A DNA stretch of 64,000 nucleotides. Source: Paludibacteraceae bacterium. Its GTDB lineage: Bacteria > Bacteroidota > Bacteroidia > Bacteroidales > Paludibacteraceae. A model generated the notes under the pieces. The model was not told the origin of the DNA, did no database searches, and saw only the letters and a list, made by a program, of their open reading frames with translations. Made by a program: the position numbers and the translations under genes. Below are positions 1 through 33,696 of this stretch, in pieces (positions within the stretch are counted from its first letter, which is position 1; the number at the start of each line of letters is the position of its first letter). The stretch lies in assembly GCA_017632345.1 (NCBI GenBank), contig JAGBRL010000100.1, positions 4,850 through 68,849 on the forward strand, read 5' to 3'.

Positions 1-201
1 TGCAAGGGGCTGGACATCTATTTGGAGCGTGAAGTGAAGTGTGAGATTCTTCATTTGGAAGAGCCTCGCGCCATAAAATACAAAGGGGTGAAGATGCAGA
101 GTTTCGACGTGGAGTTCAGGACAAACGTCTCCTTGCCCGACTTTTGCGGCCTTGGCAAAGGCACCAGCCTTGGCATGGGAATGGTGAAAATGATGAAGTG
201 A
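1..201 (+). CDS. cas6: Cas6-like CRISPR endoribonuclease, C-terminal fragment (5' end outside window)
   Basis: Frame 1 is open from nt 1 to TGA 199-201 (..EFRTNVSLPDFCGLGKGTSLGMGMVKMMK*). The glycine-rich G-x-G-x5-G-x-G tail is the C-terminal loop typical of Cas6 RAMPs. It lies directly 5' of cas10. It is absent from the ORF track because it has no start in the window. Confidence 0.6.
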   Translation, partial: CKGLDIYLEREVKCEILHLEEPRAIKYKGVKMQSFDVEFRTNVSLPDFCGLGKGTSLGMGMVKMMK

Positions 202-218
202 AATGTAAAAAATATAAT

Positions 219-2801
219 ATGAAAGATAGAGTTAGAGAACATATTTATTTAGCAGCGCTGCTGCACGATATCGGCAAGTTTTATCAGAGGGCGGATAAGT
301 CGTTTTCGGATAAAACGAATGAACTGTCGGACTCTGTAAAGAATATAGCAGGGCTTATTTGTCCATTGAATAATGAGGGTAGATTTGGATATCAGCATAC
401 AGTATGGACGCTTCAATTTTTGACGGAAATAGAAGCGACACTTAAGAAGATACCGGACTTTTCTCAGAACCTGTTTGATGGAGAGAAAAATCAGGATACA
501 ATTTTTCAGTTGGCATCATTCCACCATAAGCCAAGTACGGAATTGCAAGCTTTGATTTCGCTTGCAGATTGGTGGAGTGCCGGTGTTGATAGAAGAGTAA
601 AACTGGAGGAAGAGAATGGTGATATAGACGCTATTAAGTGGGGAAAGAATCGTTATAAGCAGATACCGCTTTATTCGGTGTTTAATGGCATTAATGAAGG
701 AAAGGGTAAGTCTGCATTTGGGCTACGTTCGTTGTCAATAGAAAAAGACGGATTTTTTCCGAATGATGTAAATTGTCCGCAAGATGGTATTTCGCAAGAA
801 AAGTATGAAAATCTTTGGATGGGATTTAAGAAAGAGTTTGATAAACTGCCAACAGATACATTTGACGGCTTTGCAGAGAGTTTGTTGAATCTGTTGAAGA
901 AATATACTTGGTGCATTCCATCTAATACAACAGATATGTCTAATGTGAGTCTATTTGACCACTTAAAGACAACAGCTGCGTTTGCAGATTGCTTGTATAT
1001 GTATAAGCAAGAAAAACCAGATGATTTTATATATCAAAATCAGCGTTTGACTTTAAAAGAAGGAGTCCAGCCGGTGTTGTTGTTAGGTGGTGATTTGTCC
1101 GGTATCCAGAAGTTCATCTATAACATTGCATCGCGCAAGGCTGCCGTTAGTTTGAAAGGACGTTCGTTCTATCTGCAATTGTTGATAGACTCTATAATTC
1201 AGAGAATTATCCAACATCCAGACATTAAAGCAACACTTGGTCATGTGGTGTATTCTTCTGGAGGTAAGTTTTATATGCTGTTACCTAATACAGAGAAAGT
1301 TAAGTCTGCTATTAAGGGGTTGAAAAGAAGTATAGAACAAGAACTTTGGAAGCAACATCATGGACAGCTTGTGGTAAATATGGATTATGTTCCGTTTGCA
1401 TACAATGTAGGTGGAAAAGGAATCGATTTTGAGAATCAAAAGAATCAAGAAATAGGTTTGTTATGGAAAGCACTTGCTGAGAATTTGACATCACAGAAGA
1501 ATCAGAAGTTTAAGAATGTACTTTTGAGTGAAGATTTCTTTAAAGTTCAGGAAGTCGGGGGTGATGTAAAAGTTTGTGCGGTGACAGGTATTGAATCTAG
1601 TATTGATAAATGTGTACCTATTGACCCTAAAGAAAAAGAAGAAGAAAGAACTTATGTTTTAAAGAAAGTCAAAGAACAAGCAGATTTAGGGAAGACCCTG
1701 AAAGATGCAGATTATATTGTTACGTACCGTTCTGATGATACAAACAAGTATATAAAGAATAAGGTAAAGATTGATATTCATAGTGCTGGTATTCATAATT
1801 ATTTGTTTGATCAATTAGAACTAACGGTTGATGATGCAGATTTTAGGAATATTACTTCTGCAGACACTTGTAGAGTGAAACGAATTAATAACACAGATTT
1901 TCTTGCAGCTCCGCTAAAAGGCAATGGTTGCAGTTATGGTTTTCAGTTCTATGGAGGTAATAAGCAAGCGCAGAAAGATGGTAGAGATAAAACTTTTGAA
2001 GAGTTGGCGGACGGAAGTTATTTAGGCGTTTTGCGTATGGATGTTGATAATCTTGGTTCGATATTTATCAAAGGACTTCCTGATAAGGATAAAAGTTTCT
2101 CAGCATATTCAACGCTCTCGTTTATGTTAGATTACTTTTTTAGTGGTTATCTGAATACTATACGTGAAAAGTACGAGGAGGATGTAAACATATTATATTC
2201 CGGAGGTGATGATGTCTTTGCTGTAGGTCGTTGGGATAAATTGATTGAATTTGCGGCTGATATTCGTAAGGACTTTGCAAAGTTTGTAGGAAGAGAAGAT
2301 ATATCTATTTCCGGAGGTATTGCAATAGTCGGGGATAAATTTCCTATAGCAAAAGCCGCAGAGTTGGCAGGAGACGCAGAGCATAATGCCAAAAGTAATA
2401 GCGAAGCGAAGAATGCTTTCAATATGTTTGGTGAGACAATTTCATGGAAAGATGACTTTGGATATGTGGAGAGATATAAGAAAGAATTTGTAGATCTAAT
2501 AAAAAATGAAAATCTTTCAAAAGGTATCTTGCATAAGATTAAAACATATGCATTGATGATAAAAGATAATAAAGAGAAAGAAAAACGAGGCGATAGGAAG
2601 AATATGAGTTATTTGTGGCACACTTCATATTATTTGTCTCGCTATATGGAAAGTCATAAGAAGAATCAGAGTGTATATGATTTTTGTAAGAATTTGAGAG
2701 ATAAAGAATTGTTGGATACTCGTAAATATGAGTTGATGGCAGTAGCAGCCCGTTGGGCAGAATTAGAGTTAAAAGAAAATAATGTAGAACAAAATAAATA
2801 G
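219..2801 (+). CDS. cas10: Cas10/Csm1, type III-A large subunit (HD nuclease plus GGDD cyclase palm)
   Basis: I chose ATG 219 (MKDRVREH..) because the ORF-track start at 144 overlaps the cas6 tail. Motifs: HD motif LAALLHDIGKF (His-Asp = nt 264-269), palm-1 loop GGDLSGIQKFIY, cyclase motif YSGGDDVFAVG (GGDD = nt 2202-2213). Confidence 0.93.
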   Translation: MKDRVREHIYLAALLHDIGKFYQRADKSFSDKTNELSDSVKNIAGLICPLNNEGRFGYQHTVWTLQFLTEIEATLKKIPDFSQNLFDGEKNQDTIFQLASFHHKPSTELQALISLADWWSAGVDRRVKLEEENGDIDAIKWGKNRYKQIPLYSVFNGINEGKGKSAFGLRSLSIEKDGFFPNDVNCPQDGISQEKYENLWMGFKKEFDKLPTDTFDGFAESLLNLLKKYTWCIPSNTTDMSNVSLFDHLKTTAAFADCLYMYKQEKPDDFIYQNQRLTLKEGVQPVLLLGGDLSGIQKFIYNIASRKAAVSLKGRSFYLQLLIDSIIQRIIQHPDIKATLGHVVYSSGGKFYMLLPNTEKVKSAIKGLKRSIEQELWKQHHGQLVVNMDYVPFAYNVGGKGIDFENQKNQEIGLLWKALAENLTSQKNQKFKNVLLSEDFFKVQEVGGDVKVCAVTGIESSIDKCVPIDPKEKEEERTYVLKKVKEQADLGKTLKDADYIVTYRSDDTNKYIKNKVKIDIHSAGIHNYLFDQLELTVDDADFRNITSADTCRVKRINNTDFLAAPLKGNGCSYGFQFYGGNKQAQKDGRDKTFEELADGSYLGVLRMDVDNLGSIFIKGLPDKDKSFSAYSTLSFMLDYFFSGYLNTIREKYEEDVNILYSGGDDVFAVGRWDKLIEFAADIRKDFAKFVGREDISISGGIAIVGDKFPIAKAAELAGDAEHNAKSNSEAKNAFNMFGETISWKDDFGYVERYKKEFVDLIKNENLSKGILHKIKTYALMIKDNKEKEKRGDRKNMSYLWHTSYYLSRYMESHKKNQSVYDFCKNLRDKELLDTRKYELMAVAARWAELELKENNVEQNK

Positions 2802-2808
2802 TTAAGTT

Positions 2809-3255
2809 ATGGCATGGGATAGAAATGATTTAATTCCGCAGACTGAGATTACCGAAAAGGTAACTCAAAGAACCGTAGATTTTGCAAAACGTTTTGGTGC
2901 GTATTTAGGTAAAGATGATAGACGTCCATCTACGGATAGGAATGGTAGAAATATAGAAATTAAAGAATCAAAGTTGACAACAAGTCAGCTTCGTAAATTC
3001 TTTGGAGAAGTGAAAAGACAACAAATGTCAGGATATGACGAAACGGATTTTGTCCTTCTTAAGCCAAAGTTAGCTTATGCTGTGGGACGTGCAAAGGATG
3101 CAAATGCAAAAATTAATGATTTTTACTTTGTGATTTCTAAAGCGATAGACAATGTGAGTTCTGAATTGCACTTTAAGAATTTTATAAAAGTATTTGAAGC
3201 TATTGTAGCTTATCATAAAGCAGCAGAAGAGAGTAAATTAAATGATAACAATTAA
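2809..3255 (+). CDS. csm2: Csm2, type III-A small subunit
   Basis: 148 aa, all-helical looking. It has TTSQLRKFFGEV and a C-terminal FEAIVAYHK, as in Csm2/Cas11 small subunits. Its position between cas10 and csm3 fits. Confidence 0.8.
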   Translation: MAWDRNDLIPQTEITEKVTQRTVDFAKRFGAYLGKDDRRPSTDRNGRNIEIKESKLTTSQLRKFFGEVKRQQMSGYDETDFVLLKPKLAYAVGRAKDANAKINDFYFVISKAIDNVSSELHFKNFIKVFEAIVAYHKAAEESKLNDNN

Positions 3256-3266
3256 TTGTATAGGAA

Positions 3267-3914
3267 ATGAAACAGTTAGTAAAGAAAATAAAGATAAATA
3301 CCACTATAGAATTATTGACAGGTTTACATATTGGTGGTAGCAGTGATAATGTTGAAATTGGAGGTATTGATAACCCTGTTATCAAGATTGCAACAAAGGA
3401 CAATCAGCCATATATTCCTGGAAGTTCTTTGAAGGGAAAGATGCGTTGTTTGTTGGAGCAAATTGCAGGTGCGGCAAAAGTGGGTGGTAACTCAGATGTA
3501 AATAATTTGTTTGGATTCTCGCAGAGTAATCAACCATCTAAACTAATAGTTCGCGATGCAATGTTGCAAGAAAAATCAGCTAGCGAATTGAGAGCGTGTT
3601 ACAATTTGGATATGCCATATACAGAGGGTAAGTGGGAGAATGTGATAGATAGAGTGAAAGGTACAGCTGAACATCCTCGTCAAATGGAGCGTATTCCAGC
3701 AGGTGTCTTTTTTGATGTAGAGTTCGTTGTCAATGTATGGGATGATGACAAAGAGAAAGATTTGTTAGACCTATTACAAAAAGGAATCAACGCACTTGAA
3801 AACGATTATTTGGGTGGTAGTGGTTCTCGTGGTTATGGTCAAATCAAGTTTGATGACTTGAAGTATTCGCACGCAGATGAAACCACAGAATGGAAAATGG
3901 TAGAAGGTAAATAG
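3267..3914 (+). CDS. csm3: Csm3 (Cas7-family RAMP, backbone / target-RNA cleaving subunit)
   Basis: TGLHIGGS..IGGIDNPVIK contains the catalytic-position Asp35 (nt 3369-3371). Also present: the GSSLKGKMR RAMP motif and a G-rich loop GGSGSRGYG near the C-terminus. Confidence 0.9.
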   Translation: MKQLVKKIKINTTIELLTGLHIGGSSDNVEIGGIDNPVIKIATKDNQPYIPGSSLKGKMRCLLEQIAGAAKVGGNSDVNNLFGFSQSNQPSKLIVRDAMLQEKSASELRACYNLDMPYTEGKWENVIDRVKGTAEHPRQMERIPAGVFFDVEFVVNVWDDDKEKDLLDLLQKGINALENDYLGGSGSRGYGQIKFDDLKYSHADETTEWKMVEGK

Positions 3915-3921
3915 TTTGAAT

Positions 3922-4923
3922 ATGGCAAAACGTAAATTTACAATATACAAACTTCATTTCACCTCGCCGTTGCACATTGGTGATGCAAGGGACGATTATA
4001 GTGTCAGTTTGAAAACAATTGCTTCTGACACTATGTATGCGGCTCTCACTTCGTGTTTGGCTAAGTTAGGGGAGTCTATACCGCCTGAGGGTGATTTGGG
4101 GTGTGTTATCAGCAGCCTTTTCCCGTTTTATCAAAAGGATGAGGCAAGTGATGCTGTGCTCTTCTTTCCAAAGCCATTGAAACAAACATTACCTACACTC
4201 AACGATTTAGCTAAGGCAAAGAGCGTGAAGAAAGTTTCATGGTTGGACAAAAACTATTTTGAGAAGGTGTTAAATGGGGAAACTTTGTTTAAAGATGGTG
4301 CTGATGTAGATAATGTAAAAGGTGATTTTTTGACCGTAGATAAAGTTTTTGATAAGGATTTTATCTCTTCTCAGGTTTTTCCAAGAGTTACCGTTTCAAG
4401 AGATGCAAGTGAAGATGCGGTTCCTTTTTACATGGATAGAGTCTTTTTCAAAGATTATTCCGGACTCTATTTTATAGCGGAGGGAGATGTTTCTTTAATA
4501 AAAAAGGCATTGGCGTTGTTGCAATCAGAAGGTATTGGGACAGATCGAAATGTAGGTAACGGTTTTTTTGAGTATGAGGAAAAAGATGTGGAATTGAATC
4601 TTCCAGACAAGGCTGATTTTGCATTGGCGTTGTCTAATTATATTCCAAATAACAAAGAAGAGTTGACGGATTTGATTGATAATGATAATGTTGCATACGA
4701 TTTTGTGCGTCGTGGTGGTTGGATAACTACGCCTCCTCACAATACAATTCGTAAGAATGCGGTCTATTCTTTTTCAGCATCATCTGTCTTTAAAAAGGAT
4801 ATGTCGGGTGTTTGTGAGTTGGGGAAGATTGTAGATTTAAGTCCTACTTTGGATTTTGAACCAAAGGTTAATCATCCGATTTGGCGTTGTGGAAAAGCAT
4901 TGTTCATTCCTATAAAGTTGTAA
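3922..4923 (+). CDS. csm4: Csm4 (Cas5-family RAMP)
   Basis: MAKRKFTIYKLHFTSPLHIGD.. N-terminus and a GIGTDRNVGNGFF glycine loop. The ORF track starts at a TTG at 3916. I prefer ATG 3922, but either is possible. Confidence 0.85.
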   Translation: MAKRKFTIYKLHFTSPLHIGDARDDYSVSLKTIASDTMYAALTSCLAKLGESIPPEGDLGCVISSLFPFYQKDEASDAVLFFPKPLKQTLPTLNDLAKAKSVKKVSWLDKNYFEKVLNGETLFKDGADVDNVKGDFLTVDKVFDKDFISSQVFPRVTVSRDASEDAVPFYMDRVFFKDYSGLYFIAEGDVSLIKKALALLQSEGIGTDRNVGNGFFEYEEKDVELNLPDKADFALALSNYIPNNKEELTDLIDNDNVAYDFVRRGGWITTPPHNTIRKNAVYSFSASSVFKKDMSGVCELGKIVDLSPTLDFEPKVNHPIWRCGKALFIPIKL

Positions 4924-4927
4924 GATT

Positions 4928-6634
4928 ATGGAAACAATAAATAAGAAATATGACTTAAAGATAGAAGTGCTTACGCCTCTGTCTATTGGTGCAGGAGCGG
5001 AAAAGGATTGGGTTAGAGGAGTGGATTTTGTTGTGAATAAAGGAAAAATATACAAACTCAATCTAAAGAAAATAGTCAGAGAGGGTGTGAATATAGACCG
5101 GTTGACATCTTTCTTTGCTTCTAAAAATGAACAAGGAATCATTAACTTAATAACAGAACCCAAATTAGAGAAAGTTTCTGATTTTGTGATGCCTTTGCCG
5201 GCAGATTCTCCTAACGATATAAAGGCATTTGTAAAGAATCAGTTGACAGGGAAGCCTATCTTGGCAGGAAGTTCTTTGAAGGGGGCTATCCGTTCCATCT
5301 TATTTGATTATTTGCGAGATAGGGAGCATGATGAAAAACAGGTATTTGGAAGTTCTGTAAAAGGAGATGAGTTTATGCGTTTCATCAAAATCTCTGATGC
5401 AGAATTTGATGGTACCTCTCTTGTAAATACCAAGATATTCAATTTGCAAAAGAAAGGAAATTGGATAGGAGGATGGAAGCATGGAGGGCGAGATACTGGC
5501 GATACTTTTAGCCCCAAAGGTTTTAATACAATATATGAGTGTTTGAAACCAATGCAGTGTGGTTTTGCAAGTATAATGTTGTCATTGAGTCAGTTTGATA
5601 AAATTGATAACCATTCATACCAGCAAGAGAAAAGAGGTATATTAAACAATGATTTGTTTAAGGTTATAAATAACCATACAAAAGAATATTTGAAGAAAGA
5701 AAAAGCTTTTTTTGAGGAGTATTCTGCAGATAAAACCAATTTAATAGTTGATTCAATAAACAATTTGTTGAATCTTATACCTTCTGACAATTCCTATTGT
5801 ATTTTGAAAATGTCCGCTGGCTCAGGTTTTCATTCTATTACAGGAGATTGGCAGTTTGAAGATTATTCTATTGATTCAATAACTTTAAAACGTAATGGAG
5901 GTACCGATAAAAGTTTTGGATATAATATCGATGGTAAAAAATCTAAATCTGCAAAATCTCGTAAAATAGCAGTCTATGGTGAACACTTTGATTTAATGGG
6001 TTTTGTGAAACTCACAGCGATAAGCGAAGAAGAAAAAGAGAAAGAACGGTTAGAACGAGAGGCTTTAGCTCGTGAGCAGGCAGAAAATGAAAGGAAACAG
6101 AGAGAAGAGCAAGAGCGATTAGAGAATGAACTAAAGAAAAAGGAGGAAGAGTTTGCTAGTTTTTATAAACTTGCGGAAGAGGCATATTCTGCAGAACAAT
6201 GGTCGGAAGTTTTGCAACATATTGAGAGTGCAGTACGTATTTTCTCTGATAGGTCATCACGCTTTGATTCTTTAAAGAGTATTGCGAATGAATATATAAA
6301 GTTGCAAGAACAACAAAAGGCTATAGACGAGGTAAAGCAAAAAGAGGATGAAGAGCGTAAAATTGCTAATAAGGTATCTCTTGCTGAAAAAATTGCAGGT
6401 ATGAACAAAATTCCAACATTGTGTGGAAATGTTAAGCAATGGATGAAATATAATAATTTAGGGGAACTTACAGAAGATGACAAAGTTGTATTAAAGAGTA
6501 AATTATTAGATTTAGGTAAGTCTTTGAAAGAGAAAGAGTTTAAAAAGCAGATGAATTCTTCTATAAAAGATTTGACTTTGATTCTTGGTCAAGACCTTGC
6601 TCAGCAATGGTTTGATGAAATTGTTAAAGGATAA
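4928..6634 (+). CDS. csm5: Csm5 RAMP fused to a ~200-aa charged/helical C-terminal extension
   Basis: The N-terminal 365 aa have RAMP features (LTPLSIGAG, LAGSSLKGAIRS, MSAGSGFHSITG). From Ser366 (nt 6023) onward comes EEEKEKERLEREALAREQAENERKQREEQERLENELKKKEEE and then a further helical region. This part is not found in canonical Csm5. Confidence 0.8.
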   Translation: METINKKYDLKIEVLTPLSIGAGAEKDWVRGVDFVVNKGKIYKLNLKKIVREGVNIDRLTSFFASKNEQGIINLITEPKLEKVSDFVMPLPADSPNDIKAFVKNQLTGKPILAGSSLKGAIRSILFDYLRDREHDEKQVFGSSVKGDEFMRFIKISDAEFDGTSLVNTKIFNLQKKGNWIGGWKHGGRDTGDTFSPKGFNTIYECLKPMQCGFASIMLSLSQFDKIDNHSYQQEKRGILNNDLFKVINNHTKEYLKKEKAFFEEYSADKTNLIVDSINNLLNLIPSDNSYCILKMSAGSGFHSITGDWQFEDYSIDSITLKRNGGTDKSFGYNIDGKKSKSAKSRKIAVYGEHFDLMGFVKLTAISEEEKEKERLEREALAREQAENERKQREEQERLENELKKKEEEFASFYKLAEEAYSAEQWSEVLQHIESAVRIFSDRSSRFDSLKSIANEYIKLQEQQKAIDEVKQKEDEERKIANKVSLAEKIAGMNKIPTLCGNVKQWMKYNNLGELTEDDKVVLKSKLLDLGKSLKEKEFKKQMNSSIKDLTLILGQDLAQQWFDEIVKG

Positions 6635-6641
6635 AACAATC

Positions 6642-6673
6642 CCCCTGCCACTCCGGCAGGGGTTCTTTTTTTT
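6642..6673 (+). terminator. Intrinsic terminator of the csm operon
   Basis: CCCCTGCC (6642-6649) / GGCAGGGG (6655-6662), a 5-nt loop, then TTCTTTTTTTTTG, 8 nt after the csm5 stop. Confidence 0.8.
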
Positions 6674-6818
6674 GATTTCTTTACAAGACTTCATAAGTTA
6701 TACAGTCCTTTTATAACAAAAATCTTTGGACTATACCGTCTGTTTGTTACAAGAATTGCTAAATTATACCGTCATTTTATTACAATATTTTTATAATTAT
6801 ACCGTCATTTCATTACAA
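6665..6818 (+). repeat. Five direct repeats at an exact 33-nt period (22-nt core TTATACCGTCATTTTATTACAA, 11-nt unrelated linkers)
   Basis: Unit starts are 6665 (half-degenerate, only ATTTCTTTACAA kept), 6698, 6731, 6764 and 6797. The cores are TTATACAGTCCTTTTATAACAA, CTATACCGTCTGTTTGTTACAA, TTATACCGTCATTTTATTACAA and TTATACCGTCATTTCATTACAA. The last core ends 12 nt before ATG 6831. Confidence 0.85.
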
Positions 6819-6830
6819 AAAACATAGCGT

Positions 6831-8171
6831 ATGATAAGGAGATTGGCAATACATAAATTAAGAGAATGGAGATATTCTGAAGATCGGAAACCTCTGATAA
6901 TAAGGGGTGTTCGTCAGGTTGGAAAGACAACCTTGGTGAAAGAGTTTGCCAAGGAGTTTGATGTTTTTTTGCATCTTAACCTCGAGCGTAGTAAAGATTC
7001 CGAGCTATTTGAACAGACAGATGATGTGGCTCAATTGCTTCAATCTATCTATTTTCATAAAAAGCAGGAGAAAAAAGATGGTTCTGTACTTCTTTTCATA
7101 GATGAGATACAAAATTCAAAAAAGGCGGTTGCTATGTTGCGTTATTTCTATGAAGAAGCTCCGGAGATTCATGTAATTGTGGCAGGTTCTTTGTTAGAGA
7201 CGGTGATGGATGTCCGTAAAATCTCATTTCCGGTGGGACGAGTAGAGTTTATGTCATTGCGTCCGTGTTCTTTTTTGGAGTTTTTAGGCGGATTGGGCGA
7301 AGATTTTGACAAAGAACTTGTAGAGAATTTCAGCGTTGAGTCTGTTGTTCATGACCGTGTGATGCGGCTTTTTCGAGAGTATGTTTTGGTGGGTGGAATG
7401 CCGGCGGTGATTGTGCAGTATGCTAAAAAGAGAGACATCTTGTCGTGTGCGAGCGTGTTTAACTCATTGTTGCAAGCCTACAAAGATGATGTGGAGAAAT
7501 ATACAAGCAGCAAAACAATGGTGAAGGTGATACGCACGATAATGGACTATGGTTGGCAGAGTGCGGCAGAGACTATCTCGTTTGAAGGATTTGGCGGAAC
7601 CAGCTATCGGTCGAGAGAGATGAGCGAGGCTTTTCAAATCATCGCTAAAGCTATGTTGACAGAGTTGGTCTATCCAACATCAGATACCCAAGTTCCGATA
7701 TTGCCCAACTTTAAGAAACGTCCTAAGTTGTTGTGGGTGGATACAGGTATTGTCAATTATGCATCCAAAGTGCAGAACGATGTTTTTTCTGCAAAAGATA
7801 TATGTGACGTGTGGCGAGGCAGGATAGCGGAACATATAGTGGCTCAAGAACTTGTGGCGTATGACAATGATATATCTCTTCGTCATAACTATTGGCGCAG
7901 AGACAAGGAGGGGTCTGATGCAGAGGTTGATTTTCTTTATCAGTTCAAGAGCTTAGTGGTTCCGATAGAGGTGAAGTCCGGGCATATTGCCAAACTTAAA
8001 TCGTTGCATCTTTTTATGGAAAAAGCTCCGCACGCCATAGCAATCAGAGTTTGGTCTAATCCTTATTCTGTTGATAATGTGACAACTTCGGGAGGAAAGC
8101 AATTTAAGTTGTTCAACGTTCCGTTTTATTATGTTGGGCAAATAGAGAGGATATTAGAGAAGGAGTTGTGA
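6831..8171 (+). CDS. AAA+ ATPase of the COG1373 type (AAA_14 + DUF4143) with a C-terminal PD-(D/E)xK-like nuclease core
   Basis: Walker A GVRQVGKTT and Walker B LLFIDEIQ. The C-terminal AEVDFLYQFKSLVVPIEVKSG gives a D..ExK arrangement. Confidence 0.8.
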   Translation: MIRRLAIHKLREWRYSEDRKPLIIRGVRQVGKTTLVKEFAKEFDVFLHLNLERSKDSELFEQTDDVAQLLQSIYFHKKQEKKDGSVLLFIDEIQNSKKAVAMLRYFYEEAPEIHVIVAGSLLETVMDVRKISFPVGRVEFMSLRPCSFLEFLGGLGEDFDKELVENFSVESVVHDRVMRLFREYVLVGGMPAVIVQYAKKRDILSCASVFNSLLQAYKDDVEKYTSSKTMVKVIRTIMDYGWQSAAETISFEGFGGTSYRSREMSEAFQIIAKAMLTELVYPTSDTQVPILPNFKKRPKLLWVDTGIVNYASKVQNDVFSAKDICDVWRGRIAEHIVAQELVAYDNDISLRHNYWRRDKEGSDAEVDFLYQFKSLVVPIEVKSGHIAKLKSLHLFMEKAPHAIAIRVWSNPYSVDNVTTSGGKQFKLFNVPFYYVGQIERILEKEL

Positions 8172-31817: not shown

Positions 31818-32783
31818 ATGTTTATGTGCATACCTGGTACAGCGCTTAGTCGCTACATAAATTTCTACACAGATTTCGCCTTCAAGAAGTTTTTCGGAAC
31901 GGAGGCGAACAAGGATTTGTTAATCAGTTTTTTGAATGCGTTGCTGGGCTTCGAGGGCGGCAAGGAGATTGTTGACCTTACTCATCTCAACACTGAGCAG
32001 CTCGGGAAGAACTTCAGCGAAAGGCGCGCTATTTATGATGTCTATTGTCAGACAAAGGACGGCGACCGTTTCATAGTTGAGATGCAAAATGCGAAGCAGG
32101 ACAATTTCAGGGACCGCTCTCTGTATTACTCCTCTTTCGCCATTCAGGAGCAGGGCAAAAAGGGGTCGAAGGTGGAGTCGTGGGACTACAGACTGTCGCC
32201 CGTATATGTTGTCGGAATCCTTAATTTTGTGATGGATGGTTCTGAAGATTTGGCAGACCGCGTGATTTCCAAGGTCAAACTTAAGGACGAGCAGAACAGG
32301 GACTTTAGTGACAAGCTGAATTTCATATTCCTTGAAATGCCAAAGTTCCGAAAGGAGGAGAATGAACTGGATACTTTTATAGACAAATGGCTTTACGTCA
32401 TCAAAAACCTTTATCGTCTGCAAGACAAGCCTGCCGCATTGACAGAAGGGATTTTTAACAAACTTTTTGAGGTGGCGGAGATTGCTGCGTTTTCGAAAAA
32501 CGAACGTTATGACTATGAGGAGAATTTAAAGAATTTCCTCGACTGGTTCAATGTGATGAGAACGGCTAAGAATGAGGGGCGAGAAGAGGGACGAGAAGAG
32601 GGGCGTGCTGAAGGGCGTGCCGAAGGCGAAGCGATAGGTGTGCAGAAAGGTGAACAGGCCTTGCTTGTTAGACTTATTTTAGCAAAAAAAGAGAAGGGAA
32701 AAACATCAGAAGAGATTGCGGAAATGCTGGAGGTTGACATAAAGGTCGTTGAAGATGTATTACGCGGAAAGCACCAAATTTGA
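31818..32783 (+). CDS. Rpn-family recombination-promoting nuclease / PD-(D/E)xK putative transposase
   Basis: The N-terminus RYINFYTDFAFKKFFGTEANKDLLISFLNALL is typical of PDDEXK_2/Rpn proteins. DVYCQ..FIVEMQ supplies the D..ExQ/K core. There is a low-complexity EGREEGREEGRAEGRAEG stretch. Confidence 0.75.
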   Translation: MFMCIPGTALSRYINFYTDFAFKKFFGTEANKDLLISFLNALLGFEGGKEIVDLTHLNTEQLGKNFSERRAIYDVYCQTKDGDRFIVEMQNAKQDNFRDRSLYYSSFAIQEQGKKGSKVESWDYRLSPVYVVGILNFVMDGSEDLADRVISKVKLKDEQNRDFSDKLNFIFLEMPKFRKEENELDTFIDKWLYVIKNLYRLQDKPAALTEGIFNKLFEVAEIAAFSKNERYDYEENLKNFLDWFNVMRTAKNEGREEGREEGRAEGRAEGEAIGVQKGEQALLVRLILAKKEKGKTSEEIAEMLEVDIKVVEDVLRGKHQI

Positions 32784-33000: not shown

Positions 33001-33696
33001 CTATAGTTCAAACGAAGCGTGGATAGAGACCTTTGGCGCAGGTGCTTCAATAACTACAGCCGGTGCAGGCGCTTCCACGATAACTGGTTCGTTCACAACC
33101 ATATATCCGTTGTGATGAGGAGCGAACCACATGCCTTCTCCGTGAAAATATGCCACGTTTCCAACTACAACTCTTTCACAATGGAAAGGAAGTGCATGAA
33201 CGTATGTGTTCACGGGAATTGTCACAACTTCATAACCATAAGTCGGATGAGGTCTGTAATACACGCCGTTGTGGTGATAATAGCACACATTGTTGATGTA
33301 GAACGGACGAGCCGAGTGATGGATATGTCTGTGATACCTCGGACGTGGCGGCACATGGCGATGCACATGATGGTGAGCCGGCTTGTGCACATGGTGATGT
33401 GCTGGTTTATGCACATGATGGTGCTTTGGTGCCGGTTTGTGAGCATGATGGTGCTTCGGAGCAGGCTTGTGATGGTGCTTCGGAGCCGGAGCAGGCTTGT
33501 GAGCGTGATGCTTCGGAGCCGGAGCTGCCTTATGTTCTTTGCGAGCCTGACGTTCGCCGCCACGGTTGCTTCTTACTTCGCTTCGCGTATTTTGCTGTCC
33601 GCGAGAGCGGTTGTCTCTTTGCGCTTCTGCACTCATTCCGAATGAGAAGATAAATGCAATCAGTATTGCAAGTATTTTATTTATTGATGTTTTCAT
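33001..33696 (-). CDS. Secreted histidine-rich repeat protein (function unknown)
   Basis: Signal peptide MKTSINKILAILIAFIFSFGMSAEA. Tandem HKPAPKHHH(A/V) units follow, then a Tyr/His-rich C-terminal domain. Confidence 0.7.
   Translation of the reverse strand: MKTSINKILAILIAFIFSFGMSAEAQRDNRSRGQQNTRSEVRSNRGGERQARKEHKAAPAPKHHAHKPAPAPKHHHKPAPKHHHAHKPAPKHHHVHKPAHHHVHKPAHHHVHRHVPPRPRYHRHIHHSARPFYINNVCYYHHNGVYYRPHPTYGYEVVTIPVNTYVHALPFHCERVVVGNVAYFHGEGMWFAPHHNGYMVVNEPVIVEAPAPAVVIEAPAPKVSIHASFEL
33316..33534 (-). repeat. In-frame tandem repeats encoding (H)KPAP(AP)KHHH(A/V)H units
   Basis: Residues 55-127 of the protein contain 28 His by my count. The DNA shows repeated GTGCACATGGTGATG / GTGCTTCGGAGC-type units. 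Confidence 0.8.

Follow-up and report, generated by a model that had tools for sequence, protein, structure and literature searches.

A conserved and portable C-terminal module on Csm5 and other capping subunits of Bacteroidota type III CRISPR systems

The stretch of DNA analysed here, which we refer to as the window, comprises 64,000 nucleotides of contig JAGBRL010000100.1 from a Paludibacteraceae bacterium. Together with the adjoining part of its source contig it carries, by gene content, an ordinary type III-A CRISPR module of the order cas6b-cas10-csm2-csm3-csm4-csm5. Csm5 is the subunit that caps the 3' end of the CRISPR RNA (crRNA). In the window its gene, the last of the module, is a single, uninterrupted open reading frame (ORF) at 4928..6634 on the + strand, which encodes 568 amino acids (aa) and continues in frame for 203 residues beyond the end of the RAMP core. 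We show that this fusion is real and conserved, and that the tail is a folded and portable module, which also occurs on capping subunits that are not orthologous to this Csm5. We tentatively propose that it serves the complex as a docking arm, tethered where the 3' end of the crRNA lies.

Csm5 is fused in frame to a conserved tail

The initial annotation of this DNA, made from the letters and their translations, had described one frame running without a stop through both parts of Csm5, and this is indeed the case: ORF 4928..6634 is uninterrupted, Ser366 begins at nt 6023, the stop codon occupies 6632-6634, and both the coordinates and the peptides quoted at the time were found to be exact. At the junction at 6023, Logan contigs from four independent DNA runs, which stem from several gut and faecal metagenome studies, cross from one part to the other with 0 differences and no joints, and in one of these runs the whole of 5600-6650 is covered. 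Three ENA/Logan contigs encode an identical Csm5 protein, and bovine-gut metatranscriptome contigs of related strains cover both halves, one of them spanning 5975-6131, where carry-over of DNA is possible. Furthermore, more than 120 protein clusters (defined at 90% identity), which are 45-93% identical to the window protein, cover 100% of its 568 residues, and genome and metagenome scans returned the same fusion in the same operon at 20 more loci. That the long gene is an artefact, a sequencing or assembly join of csm5 to a downstream gene, is next to impossible given the unchanged junction, the identical protein on three contigs and the many homologous full-length fusions, and nothing was found in its favour.

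The RAMP core itself comprises residues 1-365 (4928..6022, + strand; Pfam RAMPs E 4e-13, PADLOC Csm5 E 2.6e-14) and ends in ..HFDLMGFVKLTAI, its last residues being ..LMGFVKLTAI (residue 365). With the curated TIGR01899 model it scores 29.8 bits, below the cutoff of 38.3, and it matches model positions 2-135 only. A bona fide Csm5 for comparison is encoded by Porphyromonas cangingivalis (locus L014): this protein of 371 aa scores 97.6 bits with TIGR01899, with the model matched to position 364 of 364, and shares 24.7% identity with the window core over residues 9-362 (E 3e-14). It ends in ..DVLGFVKLKL and its stop codon, at the same point where the window core ends, which agrees both with the RAMP boundary that had been placed near residue 365 and with the statement that canonical Csm5 has no such tail. 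Canonical Csm5 proteins of the TIGR01899 type are likewise encoded by the last csm gene, carry a RAMP/Cas7-group signature and have a RAMP end of the form ..GFVKL.., but at ~340-370 aa they stop where the window tail begins, and the window core is the more divergent. On the evidence of its RAMP and PADLOC matches, its position after csm4 at the end of the operon and this pairwise similarity, the window protein is a divergent Csm5, as it had been named at the outset. It should be noted that the AlphaFold2 (AF2) model of the whole protein used a 27-sequence alignment, and that its RAMP core is poor (predicted local distance difference test score, pLDDT, below 50 for 200 residues).

Anatomy of the tail

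AF2 predicts residues 367-568 as all helix at pLDDT 85-94 (helices at 367-421, 425-438, 440-480, 485-489, 495-508, 516-532, 535-544, 546-553 and 555-567), in line with the helical look that had been ascribed to the tail, and three parts can be told apart. The first, residues 366-409 (6023..6154, + strand), is a charged segment composed for 73% of E/K/R/D/Q (40% Glu, 27% Lys/Arg) with 0 Gly/Pro, which falls within one continuous predicted helix (367-421, pLDDT ~78-94). It contains 17 i/i+4 and 11 i/i+3 opposite-charge pairs in 45 residues, and in the best heptad register only 23% of a/d positions are hydrophobic (31% counting Ala). The initial annotation had labelled this segment a coiled coil. 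The lack of a hydrophobic heptad pattern together with the dense i/i+4 pairs argues instead for an ER/K-type single alpha-helix (SAH), the sequence features of which (charge pairs, no hydrophobic seam, no helix breakers, one continuous predicted helix) are all present. As such, residues 366-409 look like a monomeric spacer and not like an interface.

SAH linkers, as in myosin VI and X, caldesmon and others, are semi-rigid spacers between functional domains. The window segment shares with them the density of E and K/R, the opposite charges at i/i+4, and the absence of a seam and of Gly/Pro, a likeness that is one of analogy and not of homology. To our knowledge, which here includes a literature search, no SAH spacer has been reported in a Cas protein, and the present one would be the first noted. 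Among homologs the charged stretch keeps its composition, and its sequence and length vary (the leading stretch has a median of 54 aa).

The second part (6155..6373, + strand) combines a TPR-like helical hairpin (~410-438) with a second long, partly charged helix (440-480), both at AF2 pLDDT ~90. The hairpin segment has the consensus Y..L...A..L.....YEEAL.....A..L.P, and the equivalent segments of two homologs score below threshold (P0133 with TPR_2, E 0.005, 17.3 bits vs 27; P0127 with ANAPC3, E 0.005). In the window protein no TPR was matched by Pfam, and the motif stands single, whereas TPRs usually come in arrays of 3 or more. The helix that follows (41 residues) is of moderate heptad character, with 42-50% of a/d positions hydrophobic.

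The third part, which we call the head, is a basic helical domain of residues 483-568 (6374..6631, + strand) with six predicted helices, the first of them very short. It carries the motif PLxEKI-x8-KxPTLxGNVKxWMKxN and a C-terminal G...A.QWF.EI. Its invariant residues are L485, W505 and G554, and conserved lysines (K503, K507, K525 and K534) are found around the invariant Trp. Modelled alone by AF2, the head reaches pLDDT 87.9 and a predicted template-modelling score of 0.77, and across 111 homologs it measures 81-89 aa. Over the homologs the head has a median isoelectric point (pI) of 9.0 and a net charge of +3 (minimum pI 5.5), and the spacer a median pI of 5.1. Across the 69 more distant homologs, the RAMP part is 60% identical to that of the window, the head 44% and the spacer only 28%. 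One outcome named beforehand as speaking against a special role, that of a common low-complexity appendage without a conserved partner, applies by half: such tails are widespread within the clade and were found without a dedicated partner gene, but with a head of fixed length, invariant residues and a confident predicted fold the tail is not of low complexity. From helix lengths (~1.5 Å/residue) and TPR topology, the arm as a whole would reach roughly 10 nm or more.

Distribution, exchange and loss of the module

An exhaustive phmmer search with only the tail against 1.84 billion representatives gave 57 matches, all of which, coiled-coil noise aside, are RAMP proteins or their fragments. That the tail might be an oddity of a single sequence is not borne out, as it is clade-wide and present on other RAMP families as well. 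The module joins the C-terminus of at least three non-orthologous lineages of capping RAMPs, always past the end of the family model. The first lineage is the clade of long Csm5 proteins (csm5-long). The second is a Csm5 of the TIGR01899 type (P0130), which has the module without the ER/K stretch, and the third consists of TIGR03986 RAMPs in III-D-like loci (P0133, P0147, and loci L008 and L009). A TIGR03986 scan that covered P0133, P0147 and the protein of L009, which are 754, 720 and 785 aa long, respectively, gave 272-293 bits (cutoff 161), and the L008 tail sits on a similarly long protein of 770 aa. The III-D-like locus L009 further encodes a 497-aa Cas10 without HD, a Csx10-like RAMP, a TIGR04423 protein, Card1-like effectors and an SLFN/AlbA_2-like gene, and no Csm2 match was found in it.

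Exchange of the module is illustrated by P0130 and P0128, the latter of the csm5-long type. In their tails a block of 48 residues is 100% identical (residues 412-459 and 246-293, respectively), the flanks of this block are ~40% identical, and the RAMP parts have no detectable BLAST similarity. This pattern points to a recent event of recombination or gene conversion in which the module was exchanged. Furthermore, a single Paludibacter metagenome-assembled genome carries the module on both a III-A (L007) and a III-D-like (L009) system, which fits a partner shared within the cell and not one specific to a subtype. Loss can be seen as well. In P. cangingivalis (L014 9998-10105), right after the csm5 stop and in the same frame, lies LPTIFGNVKTWMKLNNIENLEKSD, which equals the core motif of the head, and this sequence is what a deletion has left of the module.

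The genomic loci recovered, 11 in number, all belong to Bacteroidota (Paludibacter, Paludibacteraceae, other Bacteroidales, Flavobacteriaceae and Porphyromonas). No relative was found in the viral contigs searched, and there is as such no evidence for a phage decoy. Four candidates for free-standing tail genes (P0122, P0123, P0126 and P0134) look like fragments, the short tail matches beginning inside ..MGFVKL.. or inside the TIGR03986 C-terminal region. One protein, P0139 (L031 465-1247, 260 aa), joins the tail to an N-terminus with a transmembrane helix and a match to phrog_1383, 'virion structural protein'. This protein is the only one of its kind and comes from a contig of 1.3 kb, whereas its 593 relatives (~180 aa each) all lack the tail. 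It may be a chimeric contig or a rare real fusion, and we do not rely on this seemingly non-CRISPR context.

Several tail-bearing III-A loci encode a mini Cas10 of ~501-507 aa (L004 4758-6281; L018 6309-7823; L022 682-2205; L029 56-1561). This subclade aligns only to ~311-880 of the window Cas10, the N-terminal ~310 residues including HD being missing, and its loci have cas6b directly upstream and keep the Csm5 tail.

Searches for relatives of the tail

The tail gave nothing over threshold against Pfam, NCBIfam and PHROGs. A head profile found no match among PDB sequences (best E 0.3), and Foldseek with the head found none in the PDB at E 0.001 or better (best E 2.1), the top template-modelling score of 0.51, to the Rev1 C-terminal domain, not being significant. 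A Foldseek search with the whole-protein model returned meaningless helical matches only (root-mean-square deviation ~24 Å), and a profile search of a set of 5.8 billion proteins with the head alignment returned nothing. Solved type III structures showed no similarity to the tail, either in sequence or by Foldseek, and in the literature on Csm5 extensions, coiled coils and TIGR03986 we found no description of the tail module.

Two candidate assignments were considered and rejected. PRTRC system protein E (PF19556) does not match the window tail; in three close homologs the model just passes its cutoff of 26 bits (26.2-26.3), with a match confined to the charged/TPR stretch, and this marginal score is probably compositional. 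The head is also not a tethered Cas11/Csm2 (hhalign probability 0.27%, E 0.22; no Csm2 among the top 50 Foldseek matches). With the head, the Cas repertoire gains a domain family that is as yet uncharacterised.

Genes next to csm5 as candidate partners

The gene that follows csm5 in the window (6831..8171, + strand) encodes an ATPase with Pfam AAA_14 and DUF4143 domains. A homolog of it, 33-62% identical, follows csm5-long in at least eight independent loci, though not in all. It is unlikely to be a dedicated partner of the tail. A strong intrinsic terminator hairpin (CCCCTGCC-ACTCC-GGCAGGGG) with a T run (6642..6672, + strand), 8 nt past the csm5 stop, closes the cas operon and separates the ATPase, a neighbour transcribed on its own, from csm5. 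Furthermore, the ATPase matches the stand-alone, single-gene candidate defence gene PDC-S01 of PADLOC (E 8e-178), and it is replaced in several loci: by SLFN/AlbA_2-like proteins in L003, L017 and the III-D-like L009, and in L015 by Cad1, followed by Card1, Csx20, cas1 and cas2. Since the gene after csm5 varies in this way among loci, no dedicated partner is universally co-encoded.

Cas6b is the only family common at high identity to every tail-bearing locus (44-58% identical to that of the window), and its gene lies directly upstream of cas10 wherever the region is present, the III-D-like locus included. The tail-less Porphyromonas locus also has Cas6b, which means that this link may be phylogenetic.

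Two observations concern the DNA downstream of csm5. In related csm5-long loci, Cad1 (a CARF-adenosine deaminase), Card1-like nucleases and Csx20 (Pfam MJ1673) are encoded directly downstream (L015 11750-15440 and L017 11695-15923). In the window, four tandem repeats of ~33 bp (TTACAAGA..TTATACCGTC..) lie at 6675-6818, between the csm5 terminator and the ATPase; their core TTATACMGTC occurs 3 times there and nowhere else in the window (0.13 expected), and a regulator of the ATPase promoter may bind to these repeats.

Comparison with known systems

Csm5 of Staphylococcus epidermidis recruits and stimulates the host PNPase via its intrinsically disordered region 2 (IDR2), and also binds RNase R (PMC9762709). 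Its recruiting region is an internal segment predicted to be disordered, whereas that of the window would be a C-terminal spacer with a predicted folded domain. A second resemblance is found in the III-E Cas7-11 and III-D2 Cas7x3 proteins, in which the terminal Cas7 unit (Cas7.4) carries INS and C-terminal extension domains (PMC13294483). Here, too, extra domains are borne by the member of the Cas7 family that sits in the filament where the crRNA 3' end lies, and the tail-bearing TIGR03986 RAMPs align to the Cas7.4 region of Cas7-11. However, an ER/K spacer with a PLxEKI...GNVKxWMK head is not described for Cas7-11 or Cas7x3, and they bear no similarity to the window tail. The TPR-CHAT protein Csx29 of type III-E likewise has TPR-like hairpins in a type III accessory context, but the window protein has one TPR-like motif, fused to a capping subunit, and no protease or other enzymatic domain.

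Possible functions of the tail

So what could such a tail do at the end of a type III complex? The reading that we prefer, to which we give somewhat less than an even chance, is that the tail is a portable accessory module of Bacteroidota type III capping subunits that acts as a tethered docking arm. The stiff acidic ER/K helix, the small TPR-like three-helix knot and the second charged helix would together form a spacer or boom, holding the basic head of ~85 aa off Csm5 at the crRNA 3' end. There the head would bind a partner that acts at this end of the complex and that is not the product of a dedicated accessory gene. Host enzymes of RNA decay or crRNA trimming are candidates, by analogy to the PNPase and RNase R of S. 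epidermidis, and so is the Cas6b-bound 3' repeat remnant of intermediate crRNAs, which would be located at the same end of the complex. Docking becomes more plausible because a spacer is combined with a conserved, folded head, because the module is portable among capping subunits, and because of the S. epidermidis precedent. The spacer keeps its composition and the head keeps its length and its invariant L, W and G, so that the three parts evolve differently, which is in support of such an arm. It is from this architecture and from analogy that we infer the mechanics of spacer and head, the docking itself and the identity of the partner.

Several points weigh against this. No homolog with a known function was detected for the head, leaving docking to architecture and analogy; its basic charge (median pI 9.0) is equally consistent with direct binding of RNA; the co-occurrence with Cas6b may merely mirror shared Bacteroidota ancestry; and the extended geometry of the arm is deduced from secondary structure alone. 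Moreover, P. cangingivalis keeps Cas6b and an intact csm operon and has lost the tail, which makes the module dispensable in at least one lineage.

A bolder version of the docking arm, which we regard as doubtful, would make the head an undescribed, Bacteroidota-specific adaptor family: a plug-in, swapped by recombination, that couples type III effectors to a shared cellular machine, be it the RNA-decay or trimming nucleases or Cas6b on the 3' repeat. If this were true, guide loading, guide maturation or target clearance would need a step of tethered recruitment that is absent from the model systems.

An explanation that does without a protein partner, and that we consider rather unlikely, is direct capture of nucleic acid. 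The head on its boom would then bind RNA or DNA non-specifically (the 5' region of the target transcript, the nascent transcript or the unpaired 3' end of the crRNA) and raise the on-rate with which targets are recognised at the 3' end of the crRNA. In favour of this, most homologs have a basic head (median pI 9.0, net charge +3), its conserved lysines K503, K507, K525 and K534 surround the invariant Trp, an acidic spacer (median pI 5.1) would hold it off the RNA-loaded body, and no dedicated partner gene is co-encoded. Target RNA binding is also known to involve capping subunits, Cmr1 among them. However, no known RNA- or DNA-binding domain was matched by Pfam, PDB profile or Foldseek, the charge is modest with acidic heads in some homologs (minimum pI 5.5), and a helical bundle of 85 aa is more typical of a protein-protein adaptor.

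Self-association or regulation within the complex appears less probable still. The hairpin and long helices could pair two complexes, the TPR-like hairpin and the 41-residue helix (a/d 42-50% hydrophobic) being able to form an intermolecular bundle; alternatively, the arm could fold back along the ~15-nm complex, with the head touching Csm2 or Cas10 and tuning activation. In proteins with ER/K linkers, it is the linker that sets the effective concentration at which its two terminal domains interact, and the length of the arm is comparable to that of the complex. Against folding back, the module works on III-A and III-D-like complexes alike, the Cas10 and small subunits of which differ strongly, and it is kept in loci with a truncated Cas10 of ~505 aa. 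With Cas10 this varied, and even truncated, a conserved intramolecular target is not obvious, and between the head and Csm2 there is no relation (probability by hhalign 0.3%).

Finally, a neutral or decaying, lineage-specific charged extension without any function is very improbable. Its fast-evolving spacer (28% identity), a head that is less conserved than the RAMP core (44% vs 60%) and the loss in Porphyromonas would be expected of such an appendage, but not the full-length retention in more than 120 clusters, nor a head with fixed length, invariant residues and a confident independent fold, nor the independent acquisition by, or exchange among, several RAMP lineages.

How type III complexes enlist host factors other than Cas proteins is poorly understood, and the only worked example comes from S. 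epidermidis, in which Csm5 enlists PNPase and RNase R. The tail is a module at this very position, and one that is discrete, foldable and portable; it provides a clean experimental handle. Gut and rumen Bacteroidota have it in hundreds of systems, among them loci for the recently characterised effectors Cad1 and Card1, and those who reconstitute a Bacteroidales III-A complex will be dealing with a Csm5 that exceeds the textbook subunit by 200 residues. A terminal Cas7 with extra domains does have precedent. We see this lead as solid and tractable, without a surprise of principle.

The type III-A locus and its surroundings

The genes cas10/csm1 to csm5 form a single operon, and Cas10, Csm2, Csm3 and Csm4 all score well over the NCBIfam cutoffs. 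cas10/csm1 (144..2801, + strand) scores 599.9 bits with TIGR02578 (cutoff 170) and matches the Pfam domains Csm1_B, Cas10 palm2 and HD. Both an HD motif (..LLHDIGK..) and the GGDD cyclase motif are readable in this ORF, for which the gene caller of the source contig placed the start 25 codons later. csm2, encoding the Cas11 small subunit, follows at 2809..3255 (+ strand; PF03750 E 2.9e-22, TIGR01870 63 bits). Next come csm3, for the Cas7 backbone subunit (3267..3914, + strand; TIGR02582 211 bits, cutoff 90), and csm4, for Cas5 (3916..4923, + strand; TIGR01903 198 bits, cutoff 55; Csm4_C). Despite the GGDD motif in Cas10, no effector responsive to cyclic oligoadenylate is found near the system of the window.

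Upstream of the operon, the 85-kb source contig carries a cas6 of the Cas6b type and a CRISPR array that counts at least 37 repeats, with CTCAAAAAGTAAGTTCCAAAACAACAAGGATTAAGAC as the repeat and ATTAAGAC, at its 3' end, as a plausible 8-nt tag. The array (L001 1-2800, upstream of the window) continues to the end of the contig. In two of its units, at 1-55 and 301-355, the spacer-derived bases shown agree at 100%, as if a spacer had been duplicated. The source contig has no cas1 or cas2 between array and cas6b; the related loci L015 and L017 have cas1, a BT4734-like gene and cas2 downstream.

Window positions 1-8000, which hold the cas operon and the ATPase, have 35-39% GC and a strongly positive GC skew, as opposed to 44-49% GC in the flanking housekeeping genes (hemN-like, prfB, RNase III and fabF). 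This contrast suggests a horizontally acquired island.

At a distance from the cas genes, 33001-33696 on the - strand encodes a secreted-looking protein of 231 aa with His/Pro/Lys-rich repeats (..HKPAPAPKHHH..), and these account for the tandem DNA repeats at 33361-33525. Next to it, the ORF at 31818-32783 looks, by eye, like an Rpn/YhgA-type PD-(D/E)XK nuclease.

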